DNA from: an uncultured Clostridia bacterium
GTDB taxonomy: Bacteria; Bacillota; Clostridia; Christensenellales; CAMQZB01
Length of the DNA: 64,000 nt
NCBI GenBank assembly: GCA_964541255.1
Contig: CAZIPL010000001.1
Span: 2,432 to 66,431 of the forward strand
Reading direction: 5' to 3'
In this document: piece by piece, positions 1,486-52,730 of the stretch
Layout: every line of letters begins with the position of its first letter
How positions within the stretch are numbered: the first letter of the stretch is position 1
Notes under the pieces: model-generated
Told to the model about the DNA's origin: nothing
The model's input: only the letters and a program-made list of their open reading frames with translations
Databases searched by the model: none
Position numbers and translations under genes: made by a program

Positions 1486-1531
1486 GATTAGTTTTTCGAG
1501 TGAGTAACGTCGAAACATAGTAACGAAATCA

Positions 1532-1567
1532 AAAAACGCGGTTTGAAAAATCATTCCGCGTTTTTAT
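1532..1567 (+). terminator. Rho-independent terminator after SBP paralog 1
   Basis: aaaaacgcgg / ccgcgttttt stem with a 14-nt loop, followed by a T-run. Confidence 0.7.
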
Positions 1568-3696: not shown

Positions 3697-3851
3697 GATT
3701 CTTTTTTTCGAAAATATGTTTTTCAAGAAAAAACATTGATTGTCAAGCAAAATGTTTTCAAATTCTTTTTTGAAAAATAATTGCGATACGTTTTTTGCTG
3801 TGATAAAAAGCAATAGGCAAAGATAAACATAAAGAAAAAATAATAAACATG

Positions 3852-3882
3852 AAAACGCGACTTTTTTAAGCCGCGTTTTTTA
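3852..3882 (+). terminator. Rho-independent terminator after SBP paralog 2
   Basis: aaaacgcg / cgcgtttt stem followed by tttt. Confidence 0.6.
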
Positions 3883-4173
3883 TGTCGTATGGAATTTTTT
3901 TTAAAATCTATTTTGAAGACAAGTGGCGTTTGCGAGTTTCCGCATTTTGCTTTATTGTAATTTGATAATATAATTTACGAAAAGTATTCAAAGACATAAT
4001 TGCAAAATAAAAAAATACGTGCATTTATATCAAAAAAGAAATATAATATCGATTTTTTGTTGTTTTTATGATATGGATGGTGGAAAAGATGTTTACTACA
4101 ATTCGATTTGTACCCTATAGTGGCTTTAATAAAAGAGGCTAAATGTTTCTTGAAAGGGAAAGGAGAATTTACG

Positions 4174-6301: not shown

Positions 6302-7570
6302 TCAAGCTTTTGCTTTTTCGAGCTTGAAAAGCTCTTCCGTTGCAAGACGCGTTTTCGCAACGACGTCGCCGCAGTTTTTCGGGAAACAATAATACATTTC
6401 CTTGCCGTTTCCTATGCAAATCATATCGCCTATTTCGTACCAATAATAGTCTGAATAGAGGGAATAGGAGCTTGCCGGCTTTTGGGAATAGTTTATCTTT
6501 CCGTCGCATCCGACAAGGTTGAAACCGCTCTTGTCGTGCGTAAGAACGCCGCTACCGACTTTGCAAATCGAATCGGTGTTGACGAGCATATAAATATCTA
6601 CGTCGGCTTTTAGAAAGTATGTTCCCGAAAGCAATTCTTCCTTGACGCATTGCCTTTCCCACGAATACCAGTCGGGAATGTGGTCATATTCCGTTTCGCC
6701 CTCTATGGCTTTCAAAAAGCCGTATTCTGTAAGCTCATAAGTCTTTCCGCACGCGTTGCACTTTACCGTCGTGTCGCTACCCACCATAAAGCCCTCTTTG
6801 CCGCAATGCGGGCATTTATATAAAACTCTGTTGAGACCTTCGGCTCTGAACGGCTCGTCGATTTTGACATTGTTTTCTTGCTGCCAGCGGAAGTTGTCGA
6901 ACGTGAATTCTTCTTTGAGTCTTTCGTTTATTTCCGAAACGCTCGCTTTTTCAAGATCTTCGGGAGAAAAGATATAGCTTATGTCTGCTGATACGTTGAC
7001 TTTTCTAAGCTTTAAGTTATTATAAAGCGGATCTCTCGAAAACGCGCCGTAGGTTTTTACCATAACGACAGGCACTTTCATAAGTTTAAGGCATTTGCCT
7101 ACACCCTCGGGAAGAGGGGTTGCCGTCCCGTCGAAAGAATAGCTTGCTTCGGGATACATAAGTATCGAGCTTTTAAGCGTTTTAAGGCAATAATGTATGT
7201 TTTTAACGAGGTTTATGTCGGAGATGAACTTGTTTGTCGGAACGCAGCCTAAGTTCCTCATAAGCCAATATTTGCCTACGAAACCGTCGTAGGTGCAAAC
7301 TATGTTTAATGGCCTTGGGTAAAAAACCGAAGTCGCGATTTTAAGGTCGATAAAAGAGGAGTGGTTCATAAGAATTATGCAAGGCTCGTCGTCGGCAAGC
7401 TTTTCCATTCCGAATTCTCTATAAGAAAAATTCGTCGCTTTAAGGTCTGCAAAAGACACTACCTTAAGAAGCGTTCTAAATAAAATATTCGGCTTTTTCG
7501 GTACGAATAAGTCGTTTTTCGCTAACGCTAAAACCTCCTCGAGGCTCTTTTCGCTTTTTTTGATTTTCAT
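6302..7570 (-). CDS. PlsC-family (lysophospholipid-type) acyltransferase with internal zinc ribbon and C-terminal domain of unknown function
   Basis: HX4D acyltransferase motif NHSSFID. Zinc ribbon CPHCG..x..CNACG. Same architecture as the 51501..52670 paralog. Confidence 0.7.
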   Translation of the reverse strand: MKIKKSEKSLEEVLALAKNDLFVPKKPNILFRTLLKVVSFADLKATNFSYREFGMEKLADDEPCIILMNHSSFIDLKIATSVFYPRPLNIVCTYDGFVGKYWLMRNLGCVPTNKFISDINLVKNIHYCLKTLKSSILMYPEASYSFDGTATPLPEGVGKCLKLMKVPVVMVKTYGAFSRDPLYNNLKLRKVNVSADISYIFSPEDLEKASVSEINERLKEEFTFDNFRWQQENNVKIDEPFRAEGLNRVLYKCPHCGKEGFMVGSDTTVKCNACGKTYELTEYGFLKAIEGETEYDHIPDWYSWERQCVKEELLSGTYFLKADVDIYMLVNTDSICKVGSGVLTHDKSGFNLVGCDGKINYSQKPASSYSLYSDYYWYEIGDMICIGNGKEMYYCFPKNCGDVVAKTRLATEELFKLEKAKA

Positions 7571-14903: not shown

Positions 14904-17579
14904 TTAGCTATGTTTTCTCTTATATTTCGAATAAATAACTTTGACGACGATAAGAAGCGCAATAACTGCGATGAGAACGCCGATAAGAATAAGCGCCGTC
15001 GTCGTGGACTTTGTCTGAGCGTCGTAAGTTATTTCTGAGCTCTTGACGTAGCCCATAATGCCGTTTCCGTCGCTTGTGATTTCGCGGATGAAGATATAAT
15101 CTCCCGCCGATTTATCGAGTATTTCGACCTTGGTCTTGTCGGGAAGCGTCTTTCCGAGTTTGGTTTCGCCAAGGTCTGCGTAAACTTCTACGTAGCCGTG
15201 AAGAAGCTCCGCGTTGATTTTTCCGTATTCGATTTCGGGCGCGTAAACTTCTGCGTTTTCGACGGTGTTATATCTCGGGATATATCCGTAAACCGTTTCG
15301 CCTTTTTCGTTCTGATAAGAAACGTAGTACCAATAAAGTCCCGACGGGGAGAGGAAGTCGGCTGCTCTATCGATAATAGCAAGCTCGGTGTCTTTTTTAA
15401 GCTGCGTTATTGAATAGAGCGGCTTCAAGTCGTAGGTTGTTATTAGGGGATATTTATATAGATATACGTTTTCGTGCAAAGCAACGCCGTATTGATAAGG
15501 AACTTCCGTGTTGCGATCGTCAATCGTAACGCTTTCTGCATCCATAAAGCCCGCCGCGTTGTTATAGATGACGTAAAGATACTTTCCGTCTTCCGTTTTG
15601 CCCGCAACGATAAGCTGTTCGCCGCTTGAGAGCTTTCTTGCTCTCGTGAAAGAATAGTTGACGGGATAAAGCTCGTCGTCGGGGTTTAGGGGATAGATAA
15701 GTCTGTTGCCGTCCGAGGATATCGTTCCGATAGCAACTTCTCTGTCTTCCTTGCCGTCGAAGATGTTCTTAGGAATCTCGAGGTCGTAATAATACGCGAC
15801 GTTTAGGTCTTTGAACTCGTATTTTTCCATAATGAACGCGCGATGTTCGTTTTCTGCGAGGAAGTAGATGTGCTTGTTTTTCGCGTCAAACGTCATACGA
15901 GAAAGCTTCGCTGTTTTATCCGTAACGATTTTTATGCTTCCGCCGTCGATATATTTGTCGCCGTCCTTAATGAACTTGAAGATATAGTTTTCGCCGACGA
16001 ACTCGCATAGCGCGTAAACGCTTCCGTCAAAGTCCGAAACGACGTCTTTAACGATATAGGACGAGCTTTTTCCGACGTTTAGGCTTGCCACTTTAGAGAA
16101 AGTTTCCGTGTCGAATACGCTTATTATGTTGCCCGAAATGAAGTATGCTCTTTCGTATTTGTCGTCGATAGCAAAGGAATACTTATTCGAAACGCCGTTT
16201 TTAACGACCTTGAAAGAGTTGTCTGAAGTGTCGAGCTTTGCGAGTCTGTTTCCGTCAACGACGTATACGTCGTCAGAAACGTCTGAAGCGTATATGCTCG
16301 TTATGCTCTTAAATGACGACGCGTCGTTTTTGGTGTATTCGTCCAAAAGATCGAATGTCGAAGAATACTTCAAAACCTTCGTTGCCGTTGCAACGAATAT
16401 ATTGCCGTAATAATCTACTCCTACGGAAAGGGGAGAAAGGACGTTGTCTTTCGAGTCTTTGACGGTGAAAGAATAGTTGTTTCCGCTGTCCGTTCGAATG
16501 GAAACTCTCATATTGAGAGAGTCTGCGAAATACGTTTTGCCGTCGGAATAAACCAAGTCGGTCGGCGTATTGAACGCGCCCTCGTCGGCAGAGAAAGATG
16601 CGATTGCAAAGTATGAAGACAAAAGCACGTTTTGCGAAACTGAGAAGCCTTTGATTGCAAGCGCGCCTTTGCCGTCCAAGATATAGACGGTTTTCGTGTT
16701 AGATTTTGAATAAGCTATGGAAACGGGGTTTTTGATGTTTCCCGAATATGACGGATCGGACGAAACGGAGAGTGCCAAAGAAAAGTCGGGTGAGGAAGAG
16801 AGGTTGCCGACAAAGCATCCGTTTTGGTTGATTATGAAAAGCTTTTCTCCGTTATAGCAAAAATCCGTTATGCCGCCCGAGGGCAAGCTTGTCATTTCGG
16901 TCTTTTTGCCCGAGGTGAGATTGATTGCGGAAATCATCGAAATACCCATACTTGTCTGATATGCCAAGATGTAATCTTTCGATGCGGTAATCATCGTTGC
17001 GGAAGAAAACGCCGTTCCCGTCGTGAATTCTTCGTCTTGCGTCAACGTGTCGCCGTCGATTTTATAGCGAATGGCTTTTCTCGTGAACGAGCCTATAAGG
17101 CAATATAAATTCGTTCCGTCGGTAGCGATGTCATAAACGATAACGTCCGAAAGAGCGATGATAGCCTCTTCGGTTATTGTCGAAACGGAGTAGATATAAG
17201 TCTGTTCTTCCTCTTCGTTATAGTCAAGCACCAAGATTTTATTGCCGATGATTTCTACGTCTCTCGGGTCGTTAAAGGTTTTTTCGAACAAGAACGAACC
17301 GCCCGACGAAAAGACGAGAAGTCTTCCCGGATCGTTTTCGAGACGGTTTTCGATAACGGCGAAATACTTATCGCTCGTTGCGATCATATAAGGACGGTTG
17401 AATTCGAAATAGCGAATTTCCGAATAATTCTCCGCATATGCGTCGAGATAGCCCATTTTATTTACTATTGCGGACGGGTTGACCTTTTCGTCGCTTTCTT
17501 TTGCGTAAGCGACTGTCGGCACGCAGAATGCCTGCAATAAAAGTATAACGGCAAGTATACGCACGATAGCTTTTTTCAT
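14904..17579 (-). CDS. Large secreted, C-terminally membrane-anchored protein with beta-propeller-like repeats and SH3b-like domains
   Basis: ATG 17579 follows ggagga. Signal peptide MKKAIVRILAVILLLQAFCVPTVAYA. About 10 recurring ~45-aa blade-like segments (e.g. KILVLDYNEE, VYILDGKGALAIKGF, IFVATATKVLKYS, VYVVDGNRLAKLD, AYFISGNIISVFD, IYFLAENEHRAFIM). C-terminal SH3b-like YWYYVSYQNEKGETVYGYIP. Final TM ALILIGVLIAVIALLIVV followed by KYKRKHS. Confidence 0.6.
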   Translation of the reverse strand: MKKAIVRILAVILLLQAFCVPTVAYAKESDEKVNPSAIVNKMGYLDAYAENYSEIRYFEFNRPYMIATSDKYFAVIENRLENDPGRLLVFSSGGSFLFEKTFNDPRDVEIIGNKILVLDYNEEEEQTYIYSVSTITEEAIIALSDVIVYDIATDGTNLYCLIGSFTRKAIRYKIDGDTLTQDEEFTTGTAFSSATMITASKDYILAYQTSMGISMISAINLTSGKKTEMTSLPSGGITDFCYNGEKLFIINQNGCFVGNLSSSPDFSLALSVSSDPSYSGNIKNPVSIAYSKSNTKTVYILDGKGALAIKGFSVSQNVLLSSYFAIASFSADEGAFNTPTDLVYSDGKTYFADSLNMRVSIRTDSGNNYSFTVKDSKDNVLSPLSVGVDYYGNIFVATATKVLKYSSTFDLLDEYTKNDASSFKSITSIYASDVSDDVYVVDGNRLAKLDTSDNSFKVVKNGVSNKYSFAIDDKYERAYFISGNIISVFDTETFSKVASLNVGKSSSYIVKDVVSDFDGSVYALCEFVGENYIFKFIKDGDKYIDGGSIKIVTDKTAKLSRMTFDAKNKHIYFLAENEHRAFIMEKYEFKDLNVAYYYDLEIPKNIFDGKEDREVAIGTISSDGNRLIYPLNPDDELYPVNYSFTRARKLSSGEQLIVAGKTEDGKYLYVIYNNAAGFMDAESVTIDDRNTEVPYQYGVALHENVYLYKYPLITTYDLKPLYSITQLKKDTELAIIDRAADFLSPSGLYWYYVSYQNEKGETVYGYIPRYNTVENAEVYAPEIEYGKINAELLHGYVEVYADLGETKLGKTLPDKTKVEILDKSAGDYIFIREITSDGNGIMGYVKSSEITYDAQTKSTTTALILIGVLIAVIALLIVVKVIYSKYKRKHS

Positions 17580-17693
17580 AACTTCTTTTCTTCCTCCGAA
17601 AAGTCCGAATGTAAAGACCGACATGCGAAAAAACCGCATACGGGCATATACTATAGTAAAGCATAAATGCGGAAAAAAGTCAATGCGAGAGGC

Positions 17694-21689: not shown

Positions 21690-24600
21690 ATGAAGAAATC
21701 TTTGAGAATTTTTGTCGCATTGGCTCTCGTTGCCGTATTGGCACTCGGGTGCTTCGCGGGCTGTGAGGCTAAGACCTTCGAACAAAAATACGGCATCACG
21801 ATAAGCGACAAGACTGTTACTTATGACGGCAATGCTTACGGCGTAGAAATCGACGTAAACACGGAAGTACTTAAAGACAGGGAGTATACCGTCGAGTATA
21901 AGTATTCGAAAGACGGACAAGAGTTAGAGGGAACCTCGTTCAAAGACGCGGGCGTATACGACGTAGTCGCATCCGTTCTCGTTGCGGGCGAAGATACCCC
22001 TACGGAGCTTAAAGCAAAGCTCACGATAAATAAAGCAAACGTTGAGGTTGAACTCGGCAATTTCTTCTTGCGTCAGGGACAAGGTCTTTCCTCGATAGGA
22101 AAAGCGTCTTTGTCTGACGATACGGTTAAGCTTCAGGGAACCGACAAGGTCAAAGACTTAGGTAAAGTTTCTTATGAAGTATATAACGGCACCGAAAAGG
22201 TAACAGATCTTTCCGCATTGAAGCCCACCGCAAAAGAAACCGACGCGTTGACGGTTGTCATGGCGTTTGAAAACGAACCGACGAACTATAACTTCACGTT
22301 CAAGAACGGAAAATTATACGTTCTTTCTTCCGCTGACTATTCCGTTGCGGAGAGACTCAAAAAAGAGATCGCCAACGTTCCTACGAGCGAAACGATCAAT
22401 ACCTTCACTTATGACCAAATGCAGTCTTTCGTCGATACGGCGGACGACATCGTTTCGACATACCCCGGAACTTCCGCTATACAGAGACTTATGTCGGGAA
22501 CGGTCAACGTAGAATCCATCTCGGGACTACTTAAGACCGCAAAAGAGCGTCTTTCGATGACCTATTCCGTTGACTTCGACCTCGACAGTTCGGTAGGCAA
22601 GGGATATATCATTGCGATAGAGCATACCGCAAACAATAGCAGAAGCAAAGACGATGACGACTTCCTTTCCGAACTCATGGGAACGAAGAACTCTTCGCTC
22701 ACCGACGTCGAATATAAAGACATCATCTGCTTCGCGATTTATATCAAAGATTCCACGCAATATAAGCTCAACAGCGTTACGGTAAGAGGAAAGTCTTTCA
22801 CGCCTACCACATGGTATAATGCCTCGAAGTATAATGAGGAGACAAATGATACGGTTGCTCTTCTCAAAGCAAAGACAGGAAAAACAACTCTTAGCGGCAA
22901 CGAAATGATTTATCTTTTCGGAAACCCCAGAACAAAAGAATCTGTATTAAATAACAGCAGTAGTCTTGATGATAAATATAAAGATAACAAGGATAACAAC
23001 GATAAAGACGATCAAGGTAAACCAATCAACTACAAGCATTGGTACGGTTCAAAGAACTACGGTGCGCTTTCCGGTTCTGTAATCAACGCTTCTGTACTCG
23101 GAGCATTGGACGGTTCCAACTCCATAACAATCATTCCTAACTACGTAAATCAATATAAGATTTCCGTAGGCGGTGAAGAAAGCAATACGTTCGTTGAGAA
23201 AATAACAGATACCACAAACACTTTTGCAGAAGTTCTTCCCAACGTACAAAAAGTTACGATCTCTTCTAAGGGTACCAACTACTTCAACGCAGGCACGCAG
23301 AGCGTTTCTACGTATATCTATCACGGCTTGATTCCTAACGGTTCCGTAGCTAAGATCACTATTCAGCCTAAGACCGGTTATGTTATCAGCGAAGTTGAAA
23401 TCGGCGATACGACGGTTTCGGCAGATAAGTTCACGAGCAACGGTTATGAATATTCTTACGAATTTACCGTAACGGAAGATATGGTCAACACCAAAGGCGA
23501 ACTTAATATCTACATCAAGCTCGTTGACAGCTATTCGTTGAAAGTTAAGATTAACAATCTCGAAGTAAAGAACTCTTCCAAGAACGGCGTATATACCGAT
23601 AAGAATAAAACGGGTACGATTAAGCTTACTGGCGACGCAATCGTTACGACCGACGTTCCTACACTTTTGGGCGAAAAGTCTTTGACTATCGAAGTAACTC
23701 CTTCTACGAACTATGTTCTTGAATCGCTTGTTCTTAAAGGTAAAAAGTATAATCCCGAATCAACTAATACAGATAAGCTTGACGATAAAACATATAATCT
23801 CTTAACTGATCCGCAATTTAGCTACGTAAACGGCAAAATCTCTATTGACCTTTCGGCTGAAACCGAAGAGCTTCTTTGCACAAAAGATGTAACAATTGAA
23901 GCAACGTTCAAGGAAGTATATCCCATCAAGGTGACTTCTTCGAGAAACGGCGAAGCTTTGGAGACCGCTACAAAGGCAGGTAATTCCTATACGACGAAGT
24001 ACGGCAAAGTAACCGTATACGACGTAGAGGACGAAGAGACCAATAACCTTTATAAGGGACAGCAATACTATATCGAAATCGAAAGCGCAACGGGTTATGT
24101 TCCGTCTAAGATCACTATCGGTGGAACGGTCTTTAACCTTTTGACTCAGGATGATAGTACGGTTGAATATAAGAGATACCAAGTAACTCAAGGCTCCGAT
24201 ATGTACGTTCTTTCGAAGAATGAAAATTCCTCGTCATATATAACTGAAAACGGTCTTGATAAGTTGAAGAGAGATGATACTGAAACTGGGAAGACAAGGT
24301 ATTACCTCATCTGCTCGCCCTCTAAGGTTGCTGCAGGAGAGAACTTCGTTATCGATATCGAATTTGACGCATATTATTACCTCGACCTTGACGTAAGCTA
24401 TGCTAACGGCACAGGAAACGAGGCAATCCTTGAAGCAACACTTCTTATTAAGGGAGTTGTAACAAGTAGCGGTCTTACTAATGATGAAAACACTATTACG
24501 AATCAAGATCCTATAGGTGGAGTTAAGTTTAGTTATCTCGAGTCTTCTGTTATTTATAAGGCAGAGGGAACGCTCTATGCATACTTCAACGATACATCGA

Positions 24601-24845
24601 AGAACAAGATTGGTTTGAAGATCGATCCTAAGAATAATTACACGCTCGAAGATCCTACGTGGCAATACGGAAAGAGCTCCAAAGAGACCAAGTCCAAGAT
24701 GTCGGTAGACAAGACTTACTTCGAAGCTCTCGACGATACGATGCTCGGCGGAACCACCCCCGAAAAGGCAACGATAAAGCCCGGTGATTCCATAACCGTT
24801 TCTTTCGATTGCGACCCCGTAAGAAAAAACACATCTGAGAACTAA
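21690..24845 (+). CDS. 1051-aa surface lipoprotein with N-terminal MBG-like domains and repeated beta-sandwich-like modules
   Basis: Strong RBS aaaggaga. Lipobox signal MKKSLRIFVALALVAVLALGCFAGC. MBG-like patterns VTYDGNAYGV...DAGVYDVVASV...LTINKA and TNYNFTFKNGKLYV. Low-complexity DDKYKDNKDNNDKDDQGKP. Confidence 0.6.
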   Translation: MKKSLRIFVALALVAVLALGCFAGCEAKTFEQKYGITISDKTVTYDGNAYGVEIDVNTEVLKDREYTVEYKYSKDGQELEGTSFKDAGVYDVVASVLVAGEDTPTELKAKLTINKANVEVELGNFFLRQGQGLSSIGKASLSDDTVKLQGTDKVKDLGKVSYEVYNGTEKVTDLSALKPTAKETDALTVVMAFENEPTNYNFTFKNGKLYVLSSADYSVAERLKKEIANVPTSETINTFTYDQMQSFVDTADDIVSTYPGTSAIQRLMSGTVNVESISGLLKTAKERLSMTYSVDFDLDSSVGKGYIIAIEHTANNSRSKDDDDFLSELMGTKNSSLTDVEYKDIICFAIYIKDSTQYKLNSVTVRGKSFTPTTWYNASKYNEETNDTVALLKAKTGKTTLSGNEMIYLFGNPRTKESVLNNSSSLDDKYKDNKDNNDKDDQGKPINYKHWYGSKNYGALSGSVINASVLGALDGSNSITIIPNYVNQYKISVGGEESNTFVEKITDTTNTFAEVLPNVQKVTISSKGTNYFNAGTQSVSTYIYHGLIPNGSVAKITIQPKTGYVISEVEIGDTTVSADKFTSNGYEYSYEFTVTEDMVNTKGELNIYIKLVDSYSLKVKINNLEVKNSSKNGVYTDKNKTGTIKLTGDAIVTTDVPTLLGEKSLTIEVTPSTNYVLESLVLKGKKYNPESTNTDKLDDKTYNLLTDPQFSYVNGKISIDLSAETEELLCTKDVTIEATFKEVYPIKVTSSRNGEALETATKAGNSYTTKYGKVTVYDVEDEETNNLYKGQQYYIEIESATGYVPSKITIGGTVFNLLTQDDSTVEYKRYQVTQGSDMYVLSKNENSSSYITENGLDKLKRDDTETGKTRYYLICSPSKVAAGENFVIDIEFDAYYYLDLDVSYANGTGNEAILEATLLIKGVVTSSGLTNDENTITNQDPIGGVKFSYLESSVIYKAEGTLYAYFNDTSKNKIGLKIDPKNNYTLEDPTWQYGKSSKETKSKMSVDKTYFEALDDTMLGGTTPEKATIKPGDSITVSFDCDPVRKNTSEN

Positions 24846-28764: not shown

Positions 28765-29580
28765 TTGGCTAACATTGAAGAACTGAAAAGAATAGCCGCA
28801 AGGGTAAGAAAGACCGTTTTGGAGGTTTGTAACAAAACCGGTGGCGGTCATGTCGGCAGCTCGCTTAGTGCTGTCGAGATTTTGACGTACCTTTATGCGG
28901 AAAAGCTTAACGTGCAAAAAGAGGGAACGTTACTGTCTAAAAGAGACTCTTTCGTTTTGAGTAAGGGGCATGCGGGGCTTGCTCTTTGCGCGCTTTTTTC
29001 GGAACTCGGATTTATGGAAAGAAAAGAGCTTGACGGTTTTAATTCTTTCGACGCAACCGTTTCTATTCACCTTGACGAAAGAAAGCTTCCGCTTGTAGAC
29101 GTTTCGACGGGCTCTTTGGGACACGGCGAAGGGGTTGCTCTTGGTATGGCAATAGGCAATTCTATCAAAAATAACGGAAAGAAAGTATATTGCCTTTTGG
29201 GAGACGGCGAGCTTAACGAGGGAAGCACGTTCGAGGCGTTTGCCGCGGTGAATGCTTTTCAAGCGAAAAATCTCGTTACGATAATAGATTACAACGGCTT
29301 TATGCTCGATGGCGCGGCTAAAGATGTTTTCCCCTTTGAACCGATTGCCGAAAAGCTCGAAGCATTCGGTTTTATCGTTATTCCTTGCGACGGACACGAT
29401 TTTACCGATATCGAAAGAGCGTTCGACGAGGCGGAAATGGCGAATAAGCCTTGCGCGATACTTGCAAAGACCGTCAAGGGCAAAGGCGTCAGCTTTATGG
29501 AAAACAACGTAAATTGGCACTACGGCGCTCCGACGGACGAGGAGCTTAAAAAGGCGACGGAGGAGATAGACAATGCTTGA
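28765..29580 (+). CDS. Transketolase, N-terminal subunit (split form)
   Basis: GGGHVGSSLSAVEILTYLY, GSLGHGEGVALGMA, GDGELNEGS. TTG start 28765 follows gagga. Confidence 0.9.
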   Translation: MANIEELKRIAARVRKTVLEVCNKTGGGHVGSSLSAVEILTYLYAEKLNVQKEGTLLSKRDSFVLSKGHAGLALCALFSELGFMERKELDGFNSFDATVSIHLDERKLPLVDVSTGSLGHGEGVALGMAIGNSIKNNGKKVYCLLGDGELNEGSTFEAFAAVNAFQAKNLVTIIDYNGFMLDGAAKDVFPFEPIAEKLEAFGFIVIPCDGHDFTDIERAFDEAEMANKPCAILAKTVKGKGVSFMENNVNWHYGAPTDEELKKATEEIDNA

Positions 29581-30523
29581 AGAAAAGACAAAAACTCCTT
29601 GCGCAATGACAAGTGCCGTTGCCGAAGAATTGATAAAAATGGCAAAATCCGACGAAAACATATACGCAGTTACTGCGGACGTTGCTCATTCTACGGATTT
29701 TGAATTGATAAGAAAAGAACTGCCTACGCGTTTTATCAACGTAGGTATTGCCGAGCAAAACGCCATAGCGTTATCGTCGGGCTTAGCGAGAGTAGGCTTA
29801 AAGCCATATGTAGCGATGTTTTCGTCCTTTGCGTCAAAACGTGCGCTTGACTTTATTTTCGCCGACGTTTGCTATCCGTCTCTTCCCGTAACGATAGTCG
29901 CAACCCACGGCGGAACGTCGTTCGGCGAGGCGGGCGCTACGCATCACGCGCTTTCCGATATAACGATTATGCGTTCTTTGCCGAATATTGCCGTTGTCGT
30001 TCCTTGCGACGCGTGCGAAGCGAGAAAGGCTGTTAAGGCGACGGAAAACTACGGAAAGCCCGTATATTTAAGAATAAACCGCGGCGAAGAAGAAATAGTT
30101 GCAAAAGAAGAAAGCGCGTTTGAAATCGGCAAAGCCGACCTTTTGAAAGAGGGGAAAGACGTTGCGATAATAGCTTGCGGCTCGTGCGTCGGAGAAAGTC
30201 TTTTGGCGGCGAAATCTCTTGAAAATAAGGGGATAAACGCAAGAGTAATAAATATGCATACGATAAAGCCTATTGACGAAAAATGCGTAGTTGAGGCTGC
30301 AAAGCTCGGCGTTGTGATGACTGTCGAAGACGGTAGGAATACAGGTCTTGGTGGCGCGGTTTCGGAAGTAATTACCGATAACGGAATAGCGTGCAAAACG
30401 TTGCGCTTAGGGATCGACGGAATATGCAAGGTCGGAATGCATAAGGATATTATGCACTATTACGGAATCGACTCTTTTGGAATAGAAAAAGCCGTTGAAA
30501 AACTTCTGAATAAAAAAGCATGA
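29573..30523 (+). CDS. Transketolase, C-terminal subunit (split form)
   Basis: RFINVGIAEQNAIALSSGLA; overlaps the N-terminal subunit gene by 8 nt. Confidence 0.9.
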   Translation: MLEEKTKTPCAMTSAVAEELIKMAKSDENIYAVTADVAHSTDFELIRKELPTRFINVGIAEQNAIALSSGLARVGLKPYVAMFSSFASKRALDFIFADVCYPSLPVTIVATHGGTSFGEAGATHHALSDITIMRSLPNIAVVVPCDACEARKAVKATENYGKPVYLRINRGEEEIVAKEESAFEIGKADLLKEGKDVAIIACGSCVGESLLAAKSLENKGINARVINMHTIKPIDEKCVVEAAKLGVVMTVEDGRNTGLGGAVSEVITDNGIACKTLRLGIDGICKVGMHKDIMHYYGIDSFGIEKAVEKLLNKKA

Positions 30524-32471: not shown

Positions 32472-33628
32472 GTAGATTGTCAAGCAAGTGCAACGCCAAA
32501 GAATATTTCGTAGGGGGTTTTCCACCCCAAGCATTTTTTAGGTCTTTTGTTTATGGATAATACTACTTCGTTTAGGCTTTTTTCGTCCAATGTATGAAAA
32601 TTATATCCTTTGGGATAATAAAATCTTAATATATCGTTTGTATTTTCATTTGTTCCTCTTTGCCATGGTTTATGTGGCTCTGCAAAATACACCTCCGCAT
32701 TTATTCTTTTCTCTAATTCTCTGAATTCCGAAAATTCAGATCCATTATCCAACAAAATACTTTTAACCGGTTTACTCTTTAATAGCTTTTCTATCATTTC
32801 TCTTGTTTCAGTAGCCGACCGACTTCGTATTATTCTCGCACATAAATATCTACTCTTTCTATTCACCAATGTTACTAATAAACCTTTTCCGATTCCTCCG
32901 TAAACGGTATCACCCTCCCAATCGCCTATTCGCATACGTTTTTTGATCTCATCTTTCCATTCGGGGTGTATAGTATTATAGTTGCTGCTTCGAGGATATC
33001 TATGTTTATCTCGTCGTCTTAAGTGTTCTTTTGCTGTAATTTTGGGAAATCTATTCTCTTTTATTGCTCTATATATCGTTGATACGCTTATTCTTTTACG
33101 TTGGGGATTCTCCAATCCCCAACGTCCGCTTATTTGTTCCGGGCTCCAATATTCTTTTAGGTGTTTTACGACATATTCCCATTCTTCTGTATTTGGTTTT
33201 AAAGCATAATTATCTCGGTGGCGTCTTCGCATTATATATAAAGTTTGAGCTCTCCACGAATTATACCAAAACGTATTATCCGACTTTCCGTGAGGTTTGA
33301 ATTTCGCTTTATTTCTTCTTACTTCTCGACTGATTGTAGACGGACTTCTCCCTAATATATCTGCAATTCCCCTAAAACTAATTCCTTCGGCAAGAAATTT
33401 TTGTAGACTTTTTCTTTCTTCTATTGTAAAATGATTATATGACTTCATACTACTCCTTTGTATATGTGTTTTGTGGATAATTACATTTTATACTTTGGAC
33501 GATATGAAGTCTATTCTTTTTATCTAAGTCTATATTCTTCATTCAAGGCTTCGCCTTTTATTCAAAATATAGACTTTCCTTAATGGGCTTTCTTATTCTT
33601 GTGTTGCACTTCAAATTATATCCTATCC
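32472..33628 (-). mobile_element. IS30-family insertion sequence (~1.16 kb; ends approximate)
   Basis: Single transposase ORF. Terminal inverted repeats share the core AAGTGCAAC (32486-32494 versus the reverse complement of 33603-33611). The left end, gGTAGATTGTCAAGCAAGTGCAACGCC, begins like IS30-type IRs. The left IR overlaps the 3' end of the transposase gene. Confidence 0.7.
32480..33448 (-). CDS. IS30-family DDE transposase
   Basis: N-terminal HTH HFTIEERKSLQKFLAEG...STISREVRRN. DDE region DWEGDT ... LDNGSEF ... PWQRGTNENTN. Confidence 0.9.
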   Translation of the reverse strand: MKSYNHFTIEERKSLQKFLAEGISFRGIADILGRSPSTISREVRRNKAKFKPHGKSDNTFWYNSWRAQTLYIMRRRHRDNYALKPNTEEWEYVVKHLKEYWSPEQISGRWGLENPQRKRISVSTIYRAIKENRFPKITAKEHLRRRDKHRYPRSSNYNTIHPEWKDEIKKRMRIGDWEGDTVYGGIGKGLLVTLVNRKSRYLCARIIRSRSATETREMIEKLLKSKPVKSILLDNGSEFSEFRELEKRINAEVYFAEPHKPWQRGTNENTNDILRFYYPKGYNFHTLDEKSLNEVVLSINKRPKKCLGWKTPYEIFFGVALA

Positions 33629-33742: not shown

Positions 33743-33818
33743 TGGAGCTGATAGCGGGAATCGGACCCGCGACCCCATCCCTACCAAGGATGTGCTCTAC
33801 CGACTGAGCCATATCAGC
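33743..33818 (-). tRNA. tRNA-Thr (anticodon GGU), CCA encoded
   Basis: Reverse complement: GCTGATA TG GCTC AGTCGGTA GAGC A CATCC TTGGTAG GGATG GGGTC GCGGG TCCGATT CCCGC TATCAGC T CCA. Cloverleaf folds by hand; 76 nt. Confidence 0.85.
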
Positions 33819-33910
33819 ATCAACTTTGATATTATAGGGGATAATAGGATTTTTGTCAATAAAAAATGGACAAAAACTCGCGGAAAAATTTCGATTGTCA
33901 AAAATTCTCT

Positions 33911-47902: not shown

Positions 47903-47997
47903 TGAGAAGTTTTCGAAATGAGGATAAAAATCGTCGATAAATCTTTGACTTTTCGAGAGGATTTATATAGAATGGATAAGATTAAAAATTGAATTTA

Positions 47998-48042
47998 TTT
48001 GAGGTGTCGGAACACCCTCAAACAAAAATAAAAAACCGAGGT
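47998..48042 (+). promoter_or_regulatory. preQ1-I riboswitch (translational)
   Basis: UGAGG UGUCGGAACAC CCUCA AACAAAAAUAAAAAA CCGAGG. P1 is UGAGG/CCUCA. Loop UCGG (48007-10) can pair with tail CCGA (48036-39) to give the P2 pseudoknot, which overlaps the SD GAGG. Resembles the B. subtilis queC element AGAGGUUCUAGCUACACCCUCUAUAAAAAACUAAGG. Sits 9 nt upstream of queT. Confidence 0.65.
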
Positions 48043-48050
48043 ATAAAAAA

Positions 48051-48527
48051 TTGAAAATCAAAACCAAAGACATTGCATACGGCGCAGTCGTCGCCGCAAT
48101 GTACGTCGCGTTAACGCTCCCTTTGGGAAGCTTGGCGACTCAACCGTTTTTCCAGATTAGACCGGGCGAGGGCTTGTGCTTGTTGCCGCTACTTCTCCCG
48201 TCGTCGATCATAGGGCTGTCTGTAGGCTGCTTTCTCGTAAATATTTTGACGTCGTCCTTTATAGACGCACTCATCGGAATGTTGTTGACTCTCATTGCGG
48301 GACTGTTGACAAGACTTATCAAAAACCCGTATTTGGGCATTTTGCCTCCCGTTTTGATAAACGCTTTCGGCGTTCCCGTGATATATATACTAATGGGCTA
48401 CGATATGGCGTTTTGGTATACGTTTTTCCAAGTGCTTTTATCTCAAACCGTTTGGGTTACGGCATTGGGGCTTCCGATGTACTTTTTGACTAAAAAGATA
48501 CTTTTGAGCATTGGTAAGAATAAATAA
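48051..48527 (+). CDS. queT: QueT-family (queuosine-precursor) transporter, ECF S-component-like
   Basis: 158 aa, ~5 TM, TTG start. N-terminus KDIAYGAVVAAMYVALTLPLGSLATQPFFQIRPGEGL. Context of the preQ1 riboswitch. Confidence 0.65.
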   Translation: MKIKTKDIAYGAVVAAMYVALTLPLGSLATQPFFQIRPGEGLCLLPLLLPSSIIGLSVGCFLVNILTSSFIDALIGMLLTLIAGLLTRLIKNPYLGILPPVLINAFGVPVIYILMGYDMAFWYTFFQVLLSQTVWVTALGLPMYFLTKKILLSIGKNK

Positions 48528-48817
48528 AATCTTATTTTTCGTATTAAAAAATTTCTCTTAAGTATTGCGATTTAATTGCGTTTATTGCCAAATAACGCAC
48601 TGATCTTAACGTATTGCAATAATAAGAATAAACCGTATCTATAGATACTATTCGGATTCGATATATAATCGAGTCCGTTTTTTATGTAAAAAGTATTTTG
48701 CGAAATAGAAAAACCTCGCATTTTATCAAAGAAAAACGCTTTCAAAAACGAATACTTGTTCAAAGGCCTTTTTTCGAAAAATCCGTAGTACTTTTTCGTT
48801 TTTAAGTTTTCTTTGAT

Positions 48818-48846
48818 TTGACAATACGTAAGAAAAATAATAAAAT
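48818..48846 (+). promoter_or_regulatory. Consensus-like sigma-A promoter positioned for a leaderless pfkB transcript
   Basis: TTGACA (48818-23), a 17-bp spacer, then TAAAAT (48841-46). The ATG at 48855 is 9 nt after the -10 box and no SD lies upstream of it. Confidence 0.45.
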
Positions 48847-48854
48847 TTATTTAT

Positions 48855-49796
48855 ATGAGAGTACTTTGTTTTGGATTAGTATTAGTGGATTTACTCGCCG
48901 TAGGGGTAGAAAAGCTTCCGACGGTGTTCGAAGGAACGACCGCGTGCGACTATACGAAAACCGCAGTCGGAGGCGGCGCGATAAACTCCGCCGTCGCGTT
49001 TTCGCATTTTGGTATGGAAACGGATCTTTTGGGAAGAATATCCAAAGATTCGCTCGGAATAGTCGTCCGCCGCTTTTTGAGACGCACGCCCGTTCGAAAT
49101 AAGCTTATTTTCGACAGCGAGCATTCGACGGGAAGCTCTCTTGTTATAGTGTCGAAAACATCGCAAAAAACCGCGATAGTTTCGCGCGGAGCAAACGACG
49201 GAATAGTCAAAGAGGATTTCGATTCGGTGATTTTGTCCGATTACGACTGCCTTTTGGTCAACGGTTTTTTCCAATTTCCGAATATAGTCAACGACTTGCC
49301 GACGATTTTTTCAAAAGCGAAAAAGTGCGGTCTTACGATCGCGTTCGATACTGCGGGGTGGGATACAACCGAACGCTGGTTCGAGCAAATAAGGCCGTTT
49401 GCGAAATATATCGACTACTTTTTCCCCAACGAAGTTCAGGTGAGGAAATTGGGGCTTAGCGACGATATAGACGAAGCCGCAAACAACTTACTAAGCGAAG
49501 GAGTTTCTTGCGTAGTAGTCAAGCTCGGCGAAAAAGGCTGTACGGTTTATAGAAAGGGGAAAGAACCGCTTCATACCGACAGCTTCAAGGTCGATCCCGT
49601 CGATACGACAGGCGCCGGAGATTGCTTCGACGCGGCGTTTATGACTTGCAAGTTAGAGGGCAAAAGCGACAAATACGCTTCGAGGTTTGCCAACATCGCC
49701 GCCGCGGTAAATTGCACGCATGTAGGCGCTTGTACGGACGTACCCGAAAAAGCATTCGTAGAACGATTGATGAAGATTGAGGGATATAAATGTTAG
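48855..49796 (+). CDS. PfkB-family carbohydrate (sugar/sugar-phosphate) kinase
   Basis: N-terminus VLCFGLVLVDLL, C-terminus DTTGAGDCFDAAF; 313 aa. Confidence 0.8.
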   Translation: MRVLCFGLVLVDLLAVGVEKLPTVFEGTTACDYTKTAVGGGAINSAVAFSHFGMETDLLGRISKDSLGIVVRRFLRRTPVRNKLIFDSEHSTGSSLVIVSKTSQKTAIVSRGANDGIVKEDFDSVILSDYDCLLVNGFFQFPNIVNDLPTIFSKAKKCGLTIAFDTAGWDTTERWFEQIRPFAKYIDYFFPNEVQVRKLGLSDDIDEAANNLLSEGVSCVVVKLGEKGCTVYRKGKEPLHTDSFKVDPVDTTGAGDCFDAAFMTCKLEGKSDKYASRFANIAAAVNCTHVGACTDVPEKAFVERLMKIEGYKC

Positions 49797-50635
49797 TAAC
49801 GACGAAAGAGCTCTTGATAAGAGCAAAAGAAGAAAAATACGCAGTCCCCGCACTCAATGCGAACTGCCTTGAAATGTGCTTGCCGCTCATTCGCGCGGCT
49901 GAAAAGCTCAAAGCGCCTCTCATTTTGCAGCTTGGAAGACAATACTTAGGCTTCATGACGCCGAGTGAGATAGCTCCTACCGCAATAGCGCTCGCAAAAT
50001 CCGCAACGGTTCCCGTTGCGATTCACTTAGACCATGCAAAGGAGCTTTCGCCGTGTGTAGAGAGCCTTAAAGCGGGCTTTACGTCGATAATGTTCGACGG
50101 GTCGTCCTATTCGTTCGAAGATAATATTGTTCTTACGAAGAAAGTCGTGGAAGAAGCGAAAAAATATAACGTTCCCGTCGAGGGGGAGGTCGGAAAGGTC
50201 GGTCTTATCGAAACGACGGACTTAAACAACATCACCGATAAATCCACCCCCGAGGAGGTAATCGAGTTTGTTGCGAAAACGGGCGTCGATTCCGTCGCTG
50301 TTGCCGTCGGAAACGTTCACAGAATGAGAAGAAAGATAGCAAAGCTCGACTTCGAACTTATCGAAAAGCTCTCAAAATCTGTCGATATACCTCTTGTCAT
50401 GCACGGTGCGAGCGGAATTTCCGACGAAGACGTAAGAAGAGCAATCGAGTGCGGAATATCGAAAGTAAACGTTGCAACGGACTTTAACGTCGCGTTTACC
50501 GACGGCTTAAAGAGAGACGTTGCGAACGCTCCCGACGAAACTTTCCCTATGGAGTTTATGAAGACGGGAATGAAGAACGTCTATGACGTTGCGATAGAAA
50601 GAATTCTGGCGGTGAAAGCGGATGGAAAATATTAA
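49790..50635 (+). CDS. Class II ketose-bisphosphate aldolase family protein (FbaA/GatY/KbaY-like)
   Basis: AKEEKYAVPALNANCLEM, AIHLDHAK, PLVMHGASG. Overlaps pfkB by 7 nt. Confidence 0.8.
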   Translation: MLVTTKELLIRAKEEKYAVPALNANCLEMCLPLIRAAEKLKAPLILQLGRQYLGFMTPSEIAPTAIALAKSATVPVAIHLDHAKELSPCVESLKAGFTSIMFDGSSYSFEDNIVLTKKVVEEAKKYNVPVEGEVGKVGLIETTDLNNITDKSTPEEVIEFVAKTGVDSVAVAVGNVHRMRRKIAKLDFELIEKLSKSVDIPLVMHGASGISDEDVRRAIECGISKVNVATDFNVAFTDGLKRDVANAPDETFPMEFMKTGMKNVYDVAIERILAVKADGKY

Positions 50636-51479
50636 AATCGGATTTATCGGTTTAGGCGTTATGGGCTTGCCGATGTGCAATAACATAATCAAAAACGGCT
50701 TTGAGGTATTTGCTTTCGATAAGGACGAAAACGCAAAACAATCGGCGAAAAACATCGGGGCTATGGTTTTAGACGGCGCGAAAGACGTTGCTAAAAACGC
50801 AGACGTAACGATTCTTATGCTTCCTAACGGCGACATCGTCAAAAGCGTTATATCGGAAATCGCGGACGAGCTTATTTCGGGAAAAACGCTTGTCGATATG
50901 AGTACGATAAATCTTTCGTCGATTGAAAGTGAGGTTGAAAGACTCAAATACAAGGGTGTTGCCGTTCTTGACGCGCCTGTGGTCAAGAGTAAAGCCGCGG
51001 CGATTTCGGGCGATTTAGGCATACTTGTCGGTGGGGAAAAAAGCGACTTCGAGAGACTGCTGCCGCTATTTAAGACAATGGGCAAAAACGTCATATATAT
51101 GGGCAAAAACGGCAGCGGCTATATAGCAAAAGTATGCCACAATATGCTTGTAGGAGAAATCTCCGTCGCCGTTTCCGAAACGTTGACGCTTGCCAAAAAG
51201 CAAGGCTTGAATATTTCGGACTTCGTGACGGCAGTGTCTTACGGCGGCGGACAGAATTTTTATATGGACGGAAAAGCCGCTCCTATTGAAAGAGAGGACT
51301 TCACTTGCAATTTCTCGCTCTGCTACGAATATAAGGATTTGAACTTGGCAAAAGAGCTTGAAGAAAAGTCCGAGCTTAATTTGACGGGGCTTGATAACGC
51401 CTTGAATAAATATCGCGAGGGTGTCGAAGCGGGCTATTCCAAAGACGATTTTTGCAAAATCATAAAGACGATAAAATAA
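50622..51479 (+). CDS. Beta-hydroxyacid dehydrogenase family NAD(P) oxidoreductase (3-hydroxyisobutyrate/tartronate-semialdehyde-reductase-like)
   Basis: IGFIGLGVMGLPMCNNI Rossmann motif; 285 aa. Overlaps the aldolase gene by 14 nt. Confidence 0.8.
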   Translation: MENIKIGFIGLGVMGLPMCNNIIKNGFEVFAFDKDENAKQSAKNIGAMVLDGAKDVAKNADVTILMLPNGDIVKSVISEIADELISGKTLVDMSTINLSSIESEVERLKYKGVAVLDAPVVKSKAAAISGDLGILVGGEKSDFERLLPLFKTMGKNVIYMGKNGSGYIAKVCHNMLVGEISVAVSETLTLAKKQGLNISDFVTAVSYGGGQNFYMDGKAAPIEREDFTCNFSLCYEYKDLNLAKELEEKSELNLTGLDNALNKYREGVEAGYSKDDFCKIIKTIK

Positions 51480-51500
51480 TTTCTCGGGAGATAAAGCGAT

Positions 51501-52670
51501 ATGGAAGTAAAAAAGCGTCATGCGTTTTATTTTGGATTGGCGCGAATAGTATTGCGTTTACCGTTTAGAGTAGTATACGGCTATTCTGCGAAAAGATATA
51601 AACTTAAAAAAGACAAAAGCTATCTAATACTTTCCAATCACACCGCGCAAGCCGATGCGGTCATGCTTTCGCTTTCTTTCAATCGTCCGATATATTTTAT
51701 CGCGCAAGACGGGCTTTTGAAGCAAAAATACGGCAAGATTTTGTATCATATGTTTGCTCCTATCGCAAAACCCAAAGGAAAGGCGGAAGCTTTTTCGATA
51801 AGAGAATCGGTATCGGTAGTCAAGCAAGGCGGTGTTGTCGGCTTATATGCAAGCGGCAACTGTACTTTTAACGGCGTCGAGAGCGAGATAGATAGGTCGA
51901 TTGTTAAGTTTATTAGACTCCTGCGTTCCGACTTAATACTATATAACAACGACGGAATGTTCGGAATTGCACCGAGATTTTCGGCAAAAAGAAGACGCGG
52001 CAGGTCGTTTGGCTATGTTGTCAAAGAAGTGCCTTTCGAGGAAATAAAGAGTATGTCGGACGACGAATTGTATAAGCTCGTTTGCGATAATCTTTACGTT
52101 GACGCGGTGAAACAGCGTGGGAATAGGCTATATAAATCAAAGCACTCGGCGGAGTTTTTGGAAAGGGCATATTACGTTTGCCCGACCTGTAAATCGCTTT
52201 GTACGATTTCGTCAAGCGGCGAATACGTCGAATGCTCGCACTGCGGCTATAAAGCGAAATACGGCGCGGATTTGCATCTTCATACCGAAAAAGGCGAGGG
52301 CTTTTCCACTCTCAAAGAATGGGACGACTTCCAAAATGATTATATTTCAAACTATACTCCGAAAAAAGGCGAAGCGATTTTCTCCGACGCCATAAGAGTA
52401 GTCGAGTGGCACGAGGGAGAGGGCGTTCAAAACGTCACAAGAACGGCTTTTGAGGGCGGTAGAATAACTTTATATCCTGATAGATTCACGGTGGAAAAAG
52501 ACGGCGAAATCAAGACATTTGAGCTTGAAAAGCTGAAGTTCTCGTTCCAAGGCAGATGGAATCTTCTGACGTACTACGACGGCATGCAATATTACATCTA
52601 CGGCAACACTCCCTTTAACGGCGTGAAATATGTCGAGATGCTGAAACGACTTAAAGCTCTAAACAGTTGA
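51501..52670 (+). CDS. PlsC-family acyltransferase with internal zinc ribbon (paralog of 6302..7570)
   Basis: HX4D motif NHTAQAD; CPTCK..x..CSHCG. RBS gggaga; 21-nt gap to the upstream gene. Confidence 0.7.
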   Translation: MEVKKRHAFYFGLARIVLRLPFRVVYGYSAKRYKLKKDKSYLILSNHTAQADAVMLSLSFNRPIYFIAQDGLLKQKYGKILYHMFAPIAKPKGKAEAFSIRESVSVVKQGGVVGLYASGNCTFNGVESEIDRSIVKFIRLLRSDLILYNNDGMFGIAPRFSAKRRRGRSFGYVVKEVPFEEIKSMSDDELYKLVCDNLYVDAVKQRGNRLYKSKHSAEFLERAYYVCPTCKSLCTISSSGEYVECSHCGYKAKYGADLHLHTEKGEGFSTLKEWDDFQNDYISNYTPKKGEAIFSDAIRVVEWHEGEGVQNVTRTAFEGGRITLYPDRFTVEKDGEIKTFELEKLKFSFQGRWNLLTYYDGMQYYIYGNTPFNGVKYVEMLKRLKALNS

Positions 52671-52702
52671 CAATAAAAATAATATATCTTAAAATGAGTA
52701 TC

Positions 52703-52730
52703 GGCATCGTTCCGATGCTTGTTTTTTTAC
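52703..52730 (+). terminator. Probable intrinsic terminator after the 4-gene operon
   Basis: Short stem gcatcg / cgatgc followed by ttgttttttt. Confidence 0.5.

Follow-up and report, generated by a model that had tools for sequence, protein, structure and literature searches.

Three genes of a four-gene operon in an uncultured Clostridia bacterium (GenBank assembly GCA_964541255.1, contig CAZIPL010000001.1) very probably encode a ketose-1-phosphate pathway whose substrate has a non-phosphate anionic tail. The operon lies within a stretch of 64,000 nucleotides (nt) with a G+C content of 42%, referred to below as the window, and all positions are those of the window unless a contig is named. 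There is roughly an even chance that genes 1 to 3 form a minimal, isomerase-less core of the sulfo-EMP type (the Embden-Meyerhof-Parnas form of sulfoglycolysis), acting on a substrate that we infer to be of the sulfofructose type. The operon had been singled out in an original prediction made from the sequence without database searches; the observation itself was confirmed, and its interpretation was supported in part.

Organization and conservation of the operon

The four genes of the operon are as follows:

48855-49796, + strand: gene 1, PfkB-family sugar kinase, 313 amino acids (Pfam PF00294, 140 bits)
49790-50635, + strand: gene 2, class II aldolase of the fructose-bisphosphate aldolase (FBA) type, not the FucA type, 281 amino acids (PF01116, 280 bits)
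50622-51479, + strand: gene 3, HIBADH-family (beta-hydroxyacid) dehydrogenase, 285 amino acids (NAD_binding_2 and NAD_binding_11)
51501-52670, + strand: gene 4, PlsC-like acyltransferase, 389 amino acids (PF01553)

Genes 1 and 2 overlap by 7 nt, genes 2 and 3 overlap by 14 nt, and a gap of 21 nt separates genes 3 and 4; the open reading frame (ORF) coordinates thus agree with the close packing originally described. The same four genes were found in the same order on three Logan contigs, two with a kinase 90% identical to that of the window (L001 and L002) and one with a kinase 82% identical (L010). Their flanks are also syntenic, with a gene for asparaginyl-tRNA synthetase (AsnRS) or QueT upstream and MATE and two ChrA genes downstream. 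Synonymous divergence (dS) between the lineages was 1.1–2.9 and thus saturated, and the ratio of nonsynonymous to synonymous divergence (dN/dS) was 0.03–0.11 for each of the four genes; we therefore conclude that all four are functional genes under purifying selection.

Sister clusters of the operon

The kinase is rare: members of its own lineage are 72–100% identical to it, and all others are at most 42% identical. Among the matches listed in a scan of genome contigs with the kinase alignment there were only distant PfkB kinases of at most 35% identity, and tblastn of the kinase against plasmids gave YdjH-like and ribokinase-like matches alone, at most 32% identical. An exact look-up of the window kinase on contigs gave no record. 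A scan of metagenome contigs with the back-translated motif NGFFQFP returned 120 loci, all of them chance matches without homology to any query.

Seven of the next-best kinases outside the lineage (P0008–P0013 and P0015; 35–41% identical) were placed on contigs (L004, L005, L091, L092, L093, L217, L220, and L003), and the Clostridial gene clusters around them will be called sister clusters. All seven kinases adjoin an isomerase of 470–480 amino acids, and six of the seven kinases are followed by a PF01116 aldolase. The sole NCBIfam match of the isomerase was the model for SftI sulfoquinovose isomerase, over its full length. On the longer contigs the order was ABC importer, kinase, aldolase, isomerase, GalM-like mutarotase, HIBADH dehydrogenase, the exporter TauE, and ROK regulator; the mutarotase was found in L004/L005 and L092, and the dehydrogenase and TauE in L004/L005, L091, and L092. 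In L003, from a Clostridiales metagenome-assembled genome, the kinase–isomerase pair has as neighbors the genes of a glycyl radical enzyme and of its activase (positions 1761–4238 and 864–1745 of that contig, both on the − strand). This glycyl radical enzyme scored 1045–1115 bits against the isethionate sulfite-lyase group (5YMR, 7KQ3, and 6LON) vs. 486 bits against the next family, which suggests that sulfosugar breakdown and C–S cleavage occur in one organism. Taken together, the TauE, the SftI-like isomerase, and the sulfonate C–S lyase of these clusters point to a sulfonated sugar. Motifs common to the window and sister enzymes are NGFFQFP, FPM[ED], LQ[IL]G, PVV[KR]S, and K[LV]CHN. Three sister-cluster contigs also contain a GH42 glycosidase gene (L004, 119–2098; L005, 93–2072; L091, 12716–14695).

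The aldolase, kinase, and dehydrogenase

The aldolase is 48–52% identical to those of the sister clusters (phmmer scores of 264–296 bits), which are 48–55% identical among themselves. In a neighbor-joining tree it fell inside the clade of cluster aldolases with 100% bootstrap support, and YaSqiA, AgaY, three FBAs, and YdjI fell outside. Its best match in the Protein Data Bank (PDB) was 8Q57, with 173 bits; structures of AgaY and of FBAs scored almost as high. Entry 8Q57 is YaSqiA, a characterized class II sulfofructose-1-phosphate (SFP) aldolase from Yersinia (PMC10665668). In the PDB sequence file, 8Q57 and 8Q58 (HpSqiA) are named "Tagatose-1,6-bisphosphate aldolase kbaY" and "Ketose-bisphosphate aldolase," and a reading of the matches by name would therefore mislead.

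The zinc ligands of SqiA are His83, His180, and His208 in YaSqiA numbering, and the catalytic residue is Asp82; the metal-binding His residues and the Asp are present in the window aldolase in its HLDH, GNVH, and MHGAS motifs. In fructose-bisphosphate (FBP) aldolases, an Arg from the partner subunit binds the 6-phosphate; the residue at this position in SqiA is Ala257, and the sulfonate rests against the backbone of Gln51 and Lys52 (PMC10665668). In the alignment of this site, AgaY and the three FBAs read DPR[KY], YaSqiA reads VLAV, the window aldolase FPME, and the sister aldolases [FY]PM[ED]. The window enzyme and all of the sister enzymes thus have Met in place of the 6-phosphate-binding Arg of FBP and tagatose-bisphosphate (TBP) aldolases. 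At the sulfonate loop, where the contacts in YaSqiA are made by backbone amides, YaSqiA has LQIGQK, the window aldolase has LQLGRQ of equal length, and the sisters have [LVI]Q[IL][GS]x[KR]; the FBAs, AgaY, and YdjI differ from all of these. We regard gene 2 as encoding a class II ketose-1-phosphate aldolase and, putatively, an SFP aldolase.

The kinase matches PF00294 only, and not PF00365, the family of SqiK. Its phmmer scores against the sister-cluster kinases were 176–229 bits, and in the kinase tree the window lineage was sister to the isomerase-linked kinases with 96% bootstrap support, with YdjH and YihV outside. The PfkB catalytic GXGD motif is present in DTTGAGDCF, in which Asp256 aligns with D244 of YihV. 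Gene 1 is predicted to encode a ketose 1-kinase, putatively of the sulfofructose type.

The dehydrogenase is 43% identical (222–226 bits) to the sister-cluster dehydrogenases that precede TauE; its best PDB match gave 135 bits. It contains the catalytic Lys and Asn of the K-x3-N motif. In place of the [ST]GG motif of all five top PDB matches, which act on carboxylates, the window enzyme has VKS; the sister enzymes have either this or VRS, and the YihU motif is GRT. The backbone amide of Arg123 in YihU binds the sulfonate (PMC8006165), and VKS puts a basic residue at that position. As in YihU, beta-2 ends with an Asp (Asp33), which in a Rossmann fold suggests that the enzyme is NADH dependent. 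The product of gene 3 is predicted to reduce the aldehyde formed in the aldolase reaction, which is putatively sulfolactaldehyde (SLA), to 2,3-dihydroxypropanesulfonate (DHPS).

Proposed pathway and alternative substrates

In the proposed pathway, the PfkB kinase would phosphorylate, presumably at C1, a ketohexose with a non-phosphate anionic group at its far end, for which 6-deoxy-6-sulfofructose is the likeliest candidate. The ketose-1-phosphate would then be cleaved by the zinc-dependent class II aldolase to dihydroxyacetone phosphate (DHAP), which would enter glycolysis, and a C3 aldehyde that bears the anionic group, SLA being the likeliest. The HIBADH-family reductase, probably with NADH, would convert the aldehyde to the alcohol, DHPS. 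The original prediction had recognized the logic of kinase, aldolase, and reductase and had named both the sulfo-EMP trio and the tagatose-6-phosphate route as examples; the evidence favors the former, and the latter did not hold up, given the Met in place of Arg in the aldolase and the ribokinase- and YdjH-like character of the kinase.

Several observations weigh against a sulfosugar substrate. None of the four operon proteins reached an NCBIfam equivalog cut-off, which counts against the assignment of genes 1 to 3; for the SLA reductase model the dehydrogenase scored 146 bits vs. a cut-off of 348. The K27-N109-R138 triad of YihV is Gly, Val, and Phe in the window kinase, although the alignment of the lid region is uncertain, and the triad is absent from the sister kinases as well. 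In the dehydrogenase, N174 and S178 of YihU are His and Val. If these are sulfosugar enzymes, their specificity evolved independently of that of the E. coli enzymes, because the YihV and YihU side chains are not conserved. The window kinase and dehydrogenase are also more distant from the sisters than the sisters are from each other (35–41% vs. 43–51% for the kinase, 43% vs. 52% for the dehydrogenase), and in the kinases of the window lineage VFE or EFE replaces the lid motif HWE found in all sister kinases. The divergence and the altered lid might reflect a shift in substrate. Moreover, the sister clusters are uncharacterized; their isomerase scored 127–160 bits vs. the SftI cut-off of 700, a PDB sequence search with it gave no match, and the parts of the clusters covered by the contigs show no GH31 sulfoquinovosidase.

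The same side of the balance holds the genes that are missing. The original prediction had remarked that the operon has no isomerase, glycosidase, or transporter, and tblastn and a Pfam survey of the 64-kb window bore this out. No match in the window was found by tblastn for the sister isomerase, mutarotase, TauE, or ROK regulator, and the binding protein of the sister importer gave only weak matches (21–27% identity) to three unassigned ORFs far from the operon. In the Pfam survey of the other 40-odd genes of the window, no sulfoglycolysis gene and no sulfoquinovosidase was found. Because the isomerase, mutarotase, sulfoquinovosidase, importer, and TauE are all absent from the window, the source of a sulfoketose is unexplained. 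The absence of the isomerase is the main oddity, as every related cluster examined outside this lineage has one. The upstream steps may be encoded elsewhere, the ketose may reach the cell directly, or the substrate may have shifted; the operon is a reduced derivative of the sister-cluster type.

The main alternative, which we consider improbable though well short of negligible, is a ketose with a carboxylate tail, handled on the principle of YdjH/YdjI or IolC/IolJ. A keto-uronate or deoxy-keto-aldonate 1-phosphate would be split to DHAP and tartronate or malonate semialdehyde, and the semialdehyde reduced to glycerate or 3-hydroxypropionate. The best solved relative of the kinase is YdjH (114 bits vs. 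65 for YihV), which acts on a carboxylate-bearing substrate and is annotated as an L-glycero-L-galacto-octuluronate kinase (the functions of YdjH and YdjI were taken from RefSeq product names), and IolC is the second-best NCBIfam model of the kinase. The dehydrogenase scored highest against tartronate semialdehyde reductase models and structures, enzymes whose substrates bear carboxylates. The missing YihV and YihU side chains and the altered lid motif would fit such a substrate, as would the binding protein of the sister-cluster ABC importer, which is most like binders of acidic oligosaccharides (AlgQ1/2, 5GUB). However, the phylogenetic neighbors of all three genes belong to clusters that carry TauE, an SftI-like isomerase, and, in one instance, a sulfonate C–S lyase; YdjI is only 34% identical to the window aldolase and is the outgroup in its tree; the dehydrogenase lacks the [ST]GG motif of the five carboxylate-acting enzymes; and the window contains no iol, uxa, or gar genes. 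The myo-inositol version of this alternative, with IolC and IolJ, was set aside, because the kinase scored 119 bits vs. the IolC cut-off of 300 and no other iol genes are in the window.

An ordinary hexose-bisphosphate route, with a tagatose-6-phosphate or fructose-1-phosphate kinase and a GatY/KbaY/FBA-type aldolase, would account for the 250–258 bits of the aldolase against GatY, tagatose-bisphosphate, and FBA models, for its passing the cut-off of the broad cbbA subfamily model alone, and for the nearly equal scores of the AgaY and FBA structures and YaSqiA, but was rejected as scarcely credible because of the Arg-to-Met change and the kinase subfamily (52–58 bits against 1-phosphofructokinase/LacC-type models vs. 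138 for ribokinase, the best model). In addition, the window has no phosphotransferase system or tagatose genes, and a dedicated aldehyde reductase would be pointless if the second product were glyceraldehyde-3-phosphate.

Comparison with known pathways

The sulfo-EMP2 pathway (SqvD, SqiK, SqiA, and an SLA reductase/dehydrogenase) of the Firmicutes Bacillus urumqiensis and Megamonas rupellensis has the same chemistry as that proposed for genes 1 to 3 and occurs in the same phylum. The two share a PF01116 aldolase that has lost the 6-phosphate Arg and has a Q-x-G motif at the loop that contacts the sulfonate in YaSqiA. They differ in the kinase, which is a PfkB protein (PF00294) in the window, whereas SqiK belongs to the PFK family PF00365 (PMC10665668), and in that the window operon is without the SqvD/SftI isomerase, mutarotase, sulfoquinovosidase, and transporter. 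The window aldolase is only 36% identical to the solved Yersinia SqiA and belongs to a separate clade in the aldolase tree.

The sulfo-EMP pathway of E. coli (YihS, YihV, YihT, and YihU) resembles the proposed pathway in its PfkB kinase, its HIBADH reductase, and the order of its reactions, and YihU in particular in the basic residue at the Arg123 position and the NADH-type Asp. In contrast, YihV and YihU are only 25% and 27% identical to the window enzymes, and the former's triad and the latter's N174 and S178 are not kept; YihT is a class I and the window enzyme a class II aldolase; and an isomerase, mutarotase, glycosidase, and transporters are encoded in the E. coli cluster. The ydj cluster of E. 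coli likewise has a PfkB ketose 1-kinase and a PF01116 aldolase for a substrate with an anionic, non-phosphate tail, and YdjI also lacks the 6-phosphate Arg. Identities are low, however (30% for the kinase and 34–35% for the aldolase), and the cluster has zinc-type and aldo-keto reductases and no HIBADH enzyme.

The closest relatives of all three enzymes are in the sister clusters. The window operon differs from these in having no isomerase, mutarotase, importer, TauE, or ROK regulator, in the VFE lid, and in its gene order, in which the dehydrogenase comes immediately after the aldolase and the acyltransferase comes next. In the published curation of SqiA, the gene has to lie among sulfoglycolysis genes that include one for a sulfoquinovose isomerase (PMC10665668), a setting found in the sister clusters alone and not in the window. 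As judged from the sequences, strict membership of the window enzymes in the SqiA, YihV, and YihU families is not established, and it is contradicted for YihV and SqiK. "Hybrid" clusters with PF00294 and PF01116 proteins have been reported in Proteobacteria and Actinobacteria, and not in Firmicutes (PMC10665668; PMC12890257).

If the sulfosugar assignment is correct, the operon would represent a third lineage of sulfofructose kinases, a Clostridial PfkB protein unrelated to YihV and SqiK, paired with class II SFP aldolases that form a clade of their own. It would extend the mosaic picture of sulfo-EMP evolution, to which the sister clusters would add Firmicutes hybrids. A core without an isomerase or a transporter would imply that the missing genes are elsewhere in the genome or that the sulfoketose is taken up from neighbors. 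The breakdown of sulfoquinovose, a plant sulfosugar, by gut and environmental anaerobes feeds producers of sulfite and H2S. If the substrate is instead a carboxylate ketose, the operon would establish a small, new route of catabolism like that of YdjH/YdjI.

The promoter and the start of gene 1

Signals for transcription were found on both sides of the operon:

48653-48677, + strand: terminator-like site 3' of queT, which insulates the operon from queT
48818-48846, + strand: sigma-A-type promoter, with -35 TTGACA at 48818-48823, a 17-nt spacer, and -10 TAAAAT at 48841-48846 (11 of 12 matches to the consensus)
52691-52728, + strand: intrinsic terminator of the operon, with a core stem at 52703-52719, extended to 52691-52725, and then a T run (-14.4 kcal/mol, z = -2.0)

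The promoter had been predicted correctly except for its position relative to gene 1: the −10 hexamer ends 8 nt, and not 9 nt, before the ATG at 48855. Exact copies of TTGACA-N17-TAWAAT occur five times in the window, vs. 0.04 expected from shuffled sequences, and all five precede a correctly oriented gene (tRNA, L9, kinase, MATE, and ComEC). Both hexamers are kept in L001, L002, and L010 at a distance of 7–8 nt from the ATG, while the spacer and the DNA further upstream have diverged. This conservation is informative because dS between these lineages is saturated.

The ATG at 48855 was taken as the start, because the first beta-strand of every homolog aligns with the N-terminus of the kinase, MRVLCFGL; there is no alternative in-frame start upstream of it, as a TGA at 48819–48821 intervenes. 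As the original prediction had noted, gene 1 lacks a Shine-Dalgarno (SD) sequence, with no SD-like motif in the 30 nt 5' of the ATG. Most genes in the window carry AGGAG-like sites, and those of genes 2 to 4 range from weak to good, with GGGAG at gene 4. Transcription from sigma-A promoters usually starts approximately 7 nt past the −10 hexamer, and given that distance the 5' untranslated region of gene 1 would be 0–2 nt. A leaderless or near-leaderless mRNA from this predicted start is likely, and the conserved distance between promoter and ATG lends comparative support to the leaderless reading originally put forward. Genes 2 and 3 would be translationally coupled through the overlaps, and gene 4 would use its own SD sequence. 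A conserved consensus promoter abutting the ATG is a clean candidate for leaderless translation in Clostridia.

It is also possible, although clearly less likely, that the mRNA starts well upstream or at a weaker second promoter-like site, TTGATT-17-AATAAT, and that gene 1 is translated from an A/U-rich leader without an SD sequence. Initiation independent of an SD sequence does occur on unstructured A/U-rich leaders, and the second site ends at 48841, which would give a leader of approximately 7 nt. A start of this kind would not explain why the hexamers and their distance from the ATG are kept while the neighboring bases diverge; furthermore, a terminator lies 140 nt upstream, and no other strong promoter was found within 48678–48817. 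Rfam searches of the whole window at the gathering threshold, and of leader regions at E ≤ 1, found no riboswitch or leader element near the operon, and a repeat search for an operator in the upstream intergenic region found nothing convincing.

A scan of the + strand found no terminator within the operon and one 3' of gene 4, consistent with the single terminator originally proposed. A hairpin and T run are retained 3' of gene 4 in L001 and also, with a different sequence, in L010. A second exact TTGACA-17-TAAAAT, at 52667–52695 in the region 52667–52728, overlaps the stop codon of gene 4, and its −10 hexamer is within the 5' arm of the terminator; the transcript of the MATE gene (52846) would begin at the foot of the hairpin. 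The promoter-like element with an immediate hairpin and T run is kept as a unit in L001, where it is approximately 110 nt past the gene 4 stop codon, and in L010, and has no match in Rfam. The junction of gene 4 and the MATE gene could be an attenuator-like arrangement or a compact overlap of terminator and promoter.

Upstream of the operon, in the region 47945–48527, the queT transporter gene has a good promoter-like site (47945–47973) and a leader of approximately 75 nt, in which no preQ1 riboswitch was found with Rfam at E ≤ 1. QueT is missing from the same position in L001 and L002, and in L010 a DUF378 gene comes after it.

The acyltransferase

The zinc ribbon that had been described in gene 4, CPxC...CxxC, is present. 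This four-Cys ribbon and the catalytic HX4D motif (NHTAQAD in gene 4) are each kept in 151 of 153 family representatives. In block III, gene 4 has SGNCT and its subclade has [PA]SG[ND]CT, whereas most of the family has PEGNRT. An AlphaFold2 model (pLDDT 78.6, pTM 0.71) consists of a PlsC-like domain, the ribbon, and a helix-capped seven-stranded sandwich; in Foldseek searches, the N-terminal half resembled PlsC (5KYM) and PatA, and the C-terminal part resembled PH domains. Compared with Thermotoga maritima PlsC (5KYM), gene 4 shares the HX4D motif and the acyltransferase fold (Foldseek TM-score of 0.59, target-normalized), but the proteins are only approximately 14% identical, gene 4 has in addition the ribbon and the PH-like domain, and its block III is SGNCT and not EGTR, so that the phosphate-binding Arg is missing. 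Its score against TIGR00530 was 31.5 vs. a cut-off of 103. The family is large: 262 representatives were obtained at E ≤ 1e-30 and 1164 at the looser E ≤ 1e-10, and most are 390–410 amino acids long. Members from Clostridia, Eubacteriales, and Treponemataceae are annotated only as "lysophospholipid acyltransferase family protein." A paralog is present in the window:

6302-7570, - strand: paralogous acyltransferase, 422 amino acids, with HX4D and CPxC...CxxC, 20% identical to gene 4, beside HTH_3 and TetR regulators

The original prediction had suggested that the acyltransferase could belong with genes 1 to 3 and form an acylated phospho-polyol or lipid precursor. All four genes would then serve one pathway, in which DHAP, its reduced form, or DHPS would be acylated. 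Such coupling is very improbable, and a functional link of gene 4 to genes 1 to 3 was not supported by the comparative data. Co-transcription of gene 4 is itself likely, because genes 3 and 4 are not separated by a terminator and lie 21–56 nt apart in the three lineages. The coupled reading could also draw on the position after the dehydrogenase, where sister clusters have the exporter TauE and the window operon has the acyltransferase, and on the subclade's SG[ND]CT in place of the usual PEGNRT at the acceptor site. However, the four-gene arrangement for which a survey had been proposed was found in L001, L002, and L010 only, where the AsnRS, MATE, and ChrA flanks are syntenic too; because the whole neighborhood is syntenic, the adjacency of gene 4 adds no independent information. 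Outside these close relatives, genes 33–34% identical to gene 4 (L007–L009) adjoin a Glt_symporter-like gene, and their surroundings contain neither a kinase nor an aldolase nor a dehydrogenase. The size of the family, the unrelated context of the paralog, and the SD sequence and weak promoter-like site (51452–51480) of gene 4's own also argue against coupling, and a literature search found no mention of an acyl-DHPS lipid. Gene 4 probably functions in general lipid metabolism.

A special case of the coupled reading is less probable still: the end product of the pathway would be used and not exported, with gene 4 acylating DHPS, a sulfonate analog of glycerol-3-phosphate, to a new acyl-dihydroxypropanesulfonate lipid. 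This would be the sulfonate counterpart of lysophosphatidic acid; the reading draws on the TauE position held by gene 4 and on its loss of the phosphate-binding Glu and Arg of PEGNRT.

Other features of the window

A split transketolase gene has its N-terminal half at 28765–29580 and its C-terminal half at 29573–30523, and is followed by a gene for a flavin adenine dinucleotide (FAD)-dependent protein (PF21688), the region extending to 32138. The transketolase (28765–30523) was considered as part of a sulfoglycolytic transketolase (sulfo-TK) pathway, and no supporting neighbors were found. An IS30-like transposase gene (HTH_38 and rve domains; 32480–33448, − strand) adjoins the only tRNA gene of the window (33746–33859, − strand), which has its own exact consensus promoter at 33859–33831. 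Large ORFs of 485, 671, 644, 911, and 1051 amino acids without a Pfam match are found at 28–6042, 14904–17639 (− strand), and 21690–24845; those of 485, 671, and 644 amino acids are weakly similar to an ABC solute-binding protein. In keeping with an origin in Clostridia, the AsnRS is 72–81% identical to proteins named "Clostridia bacterium," and genes for Firmicute-type DnaB_2 and the DnaI loader are present in the window.

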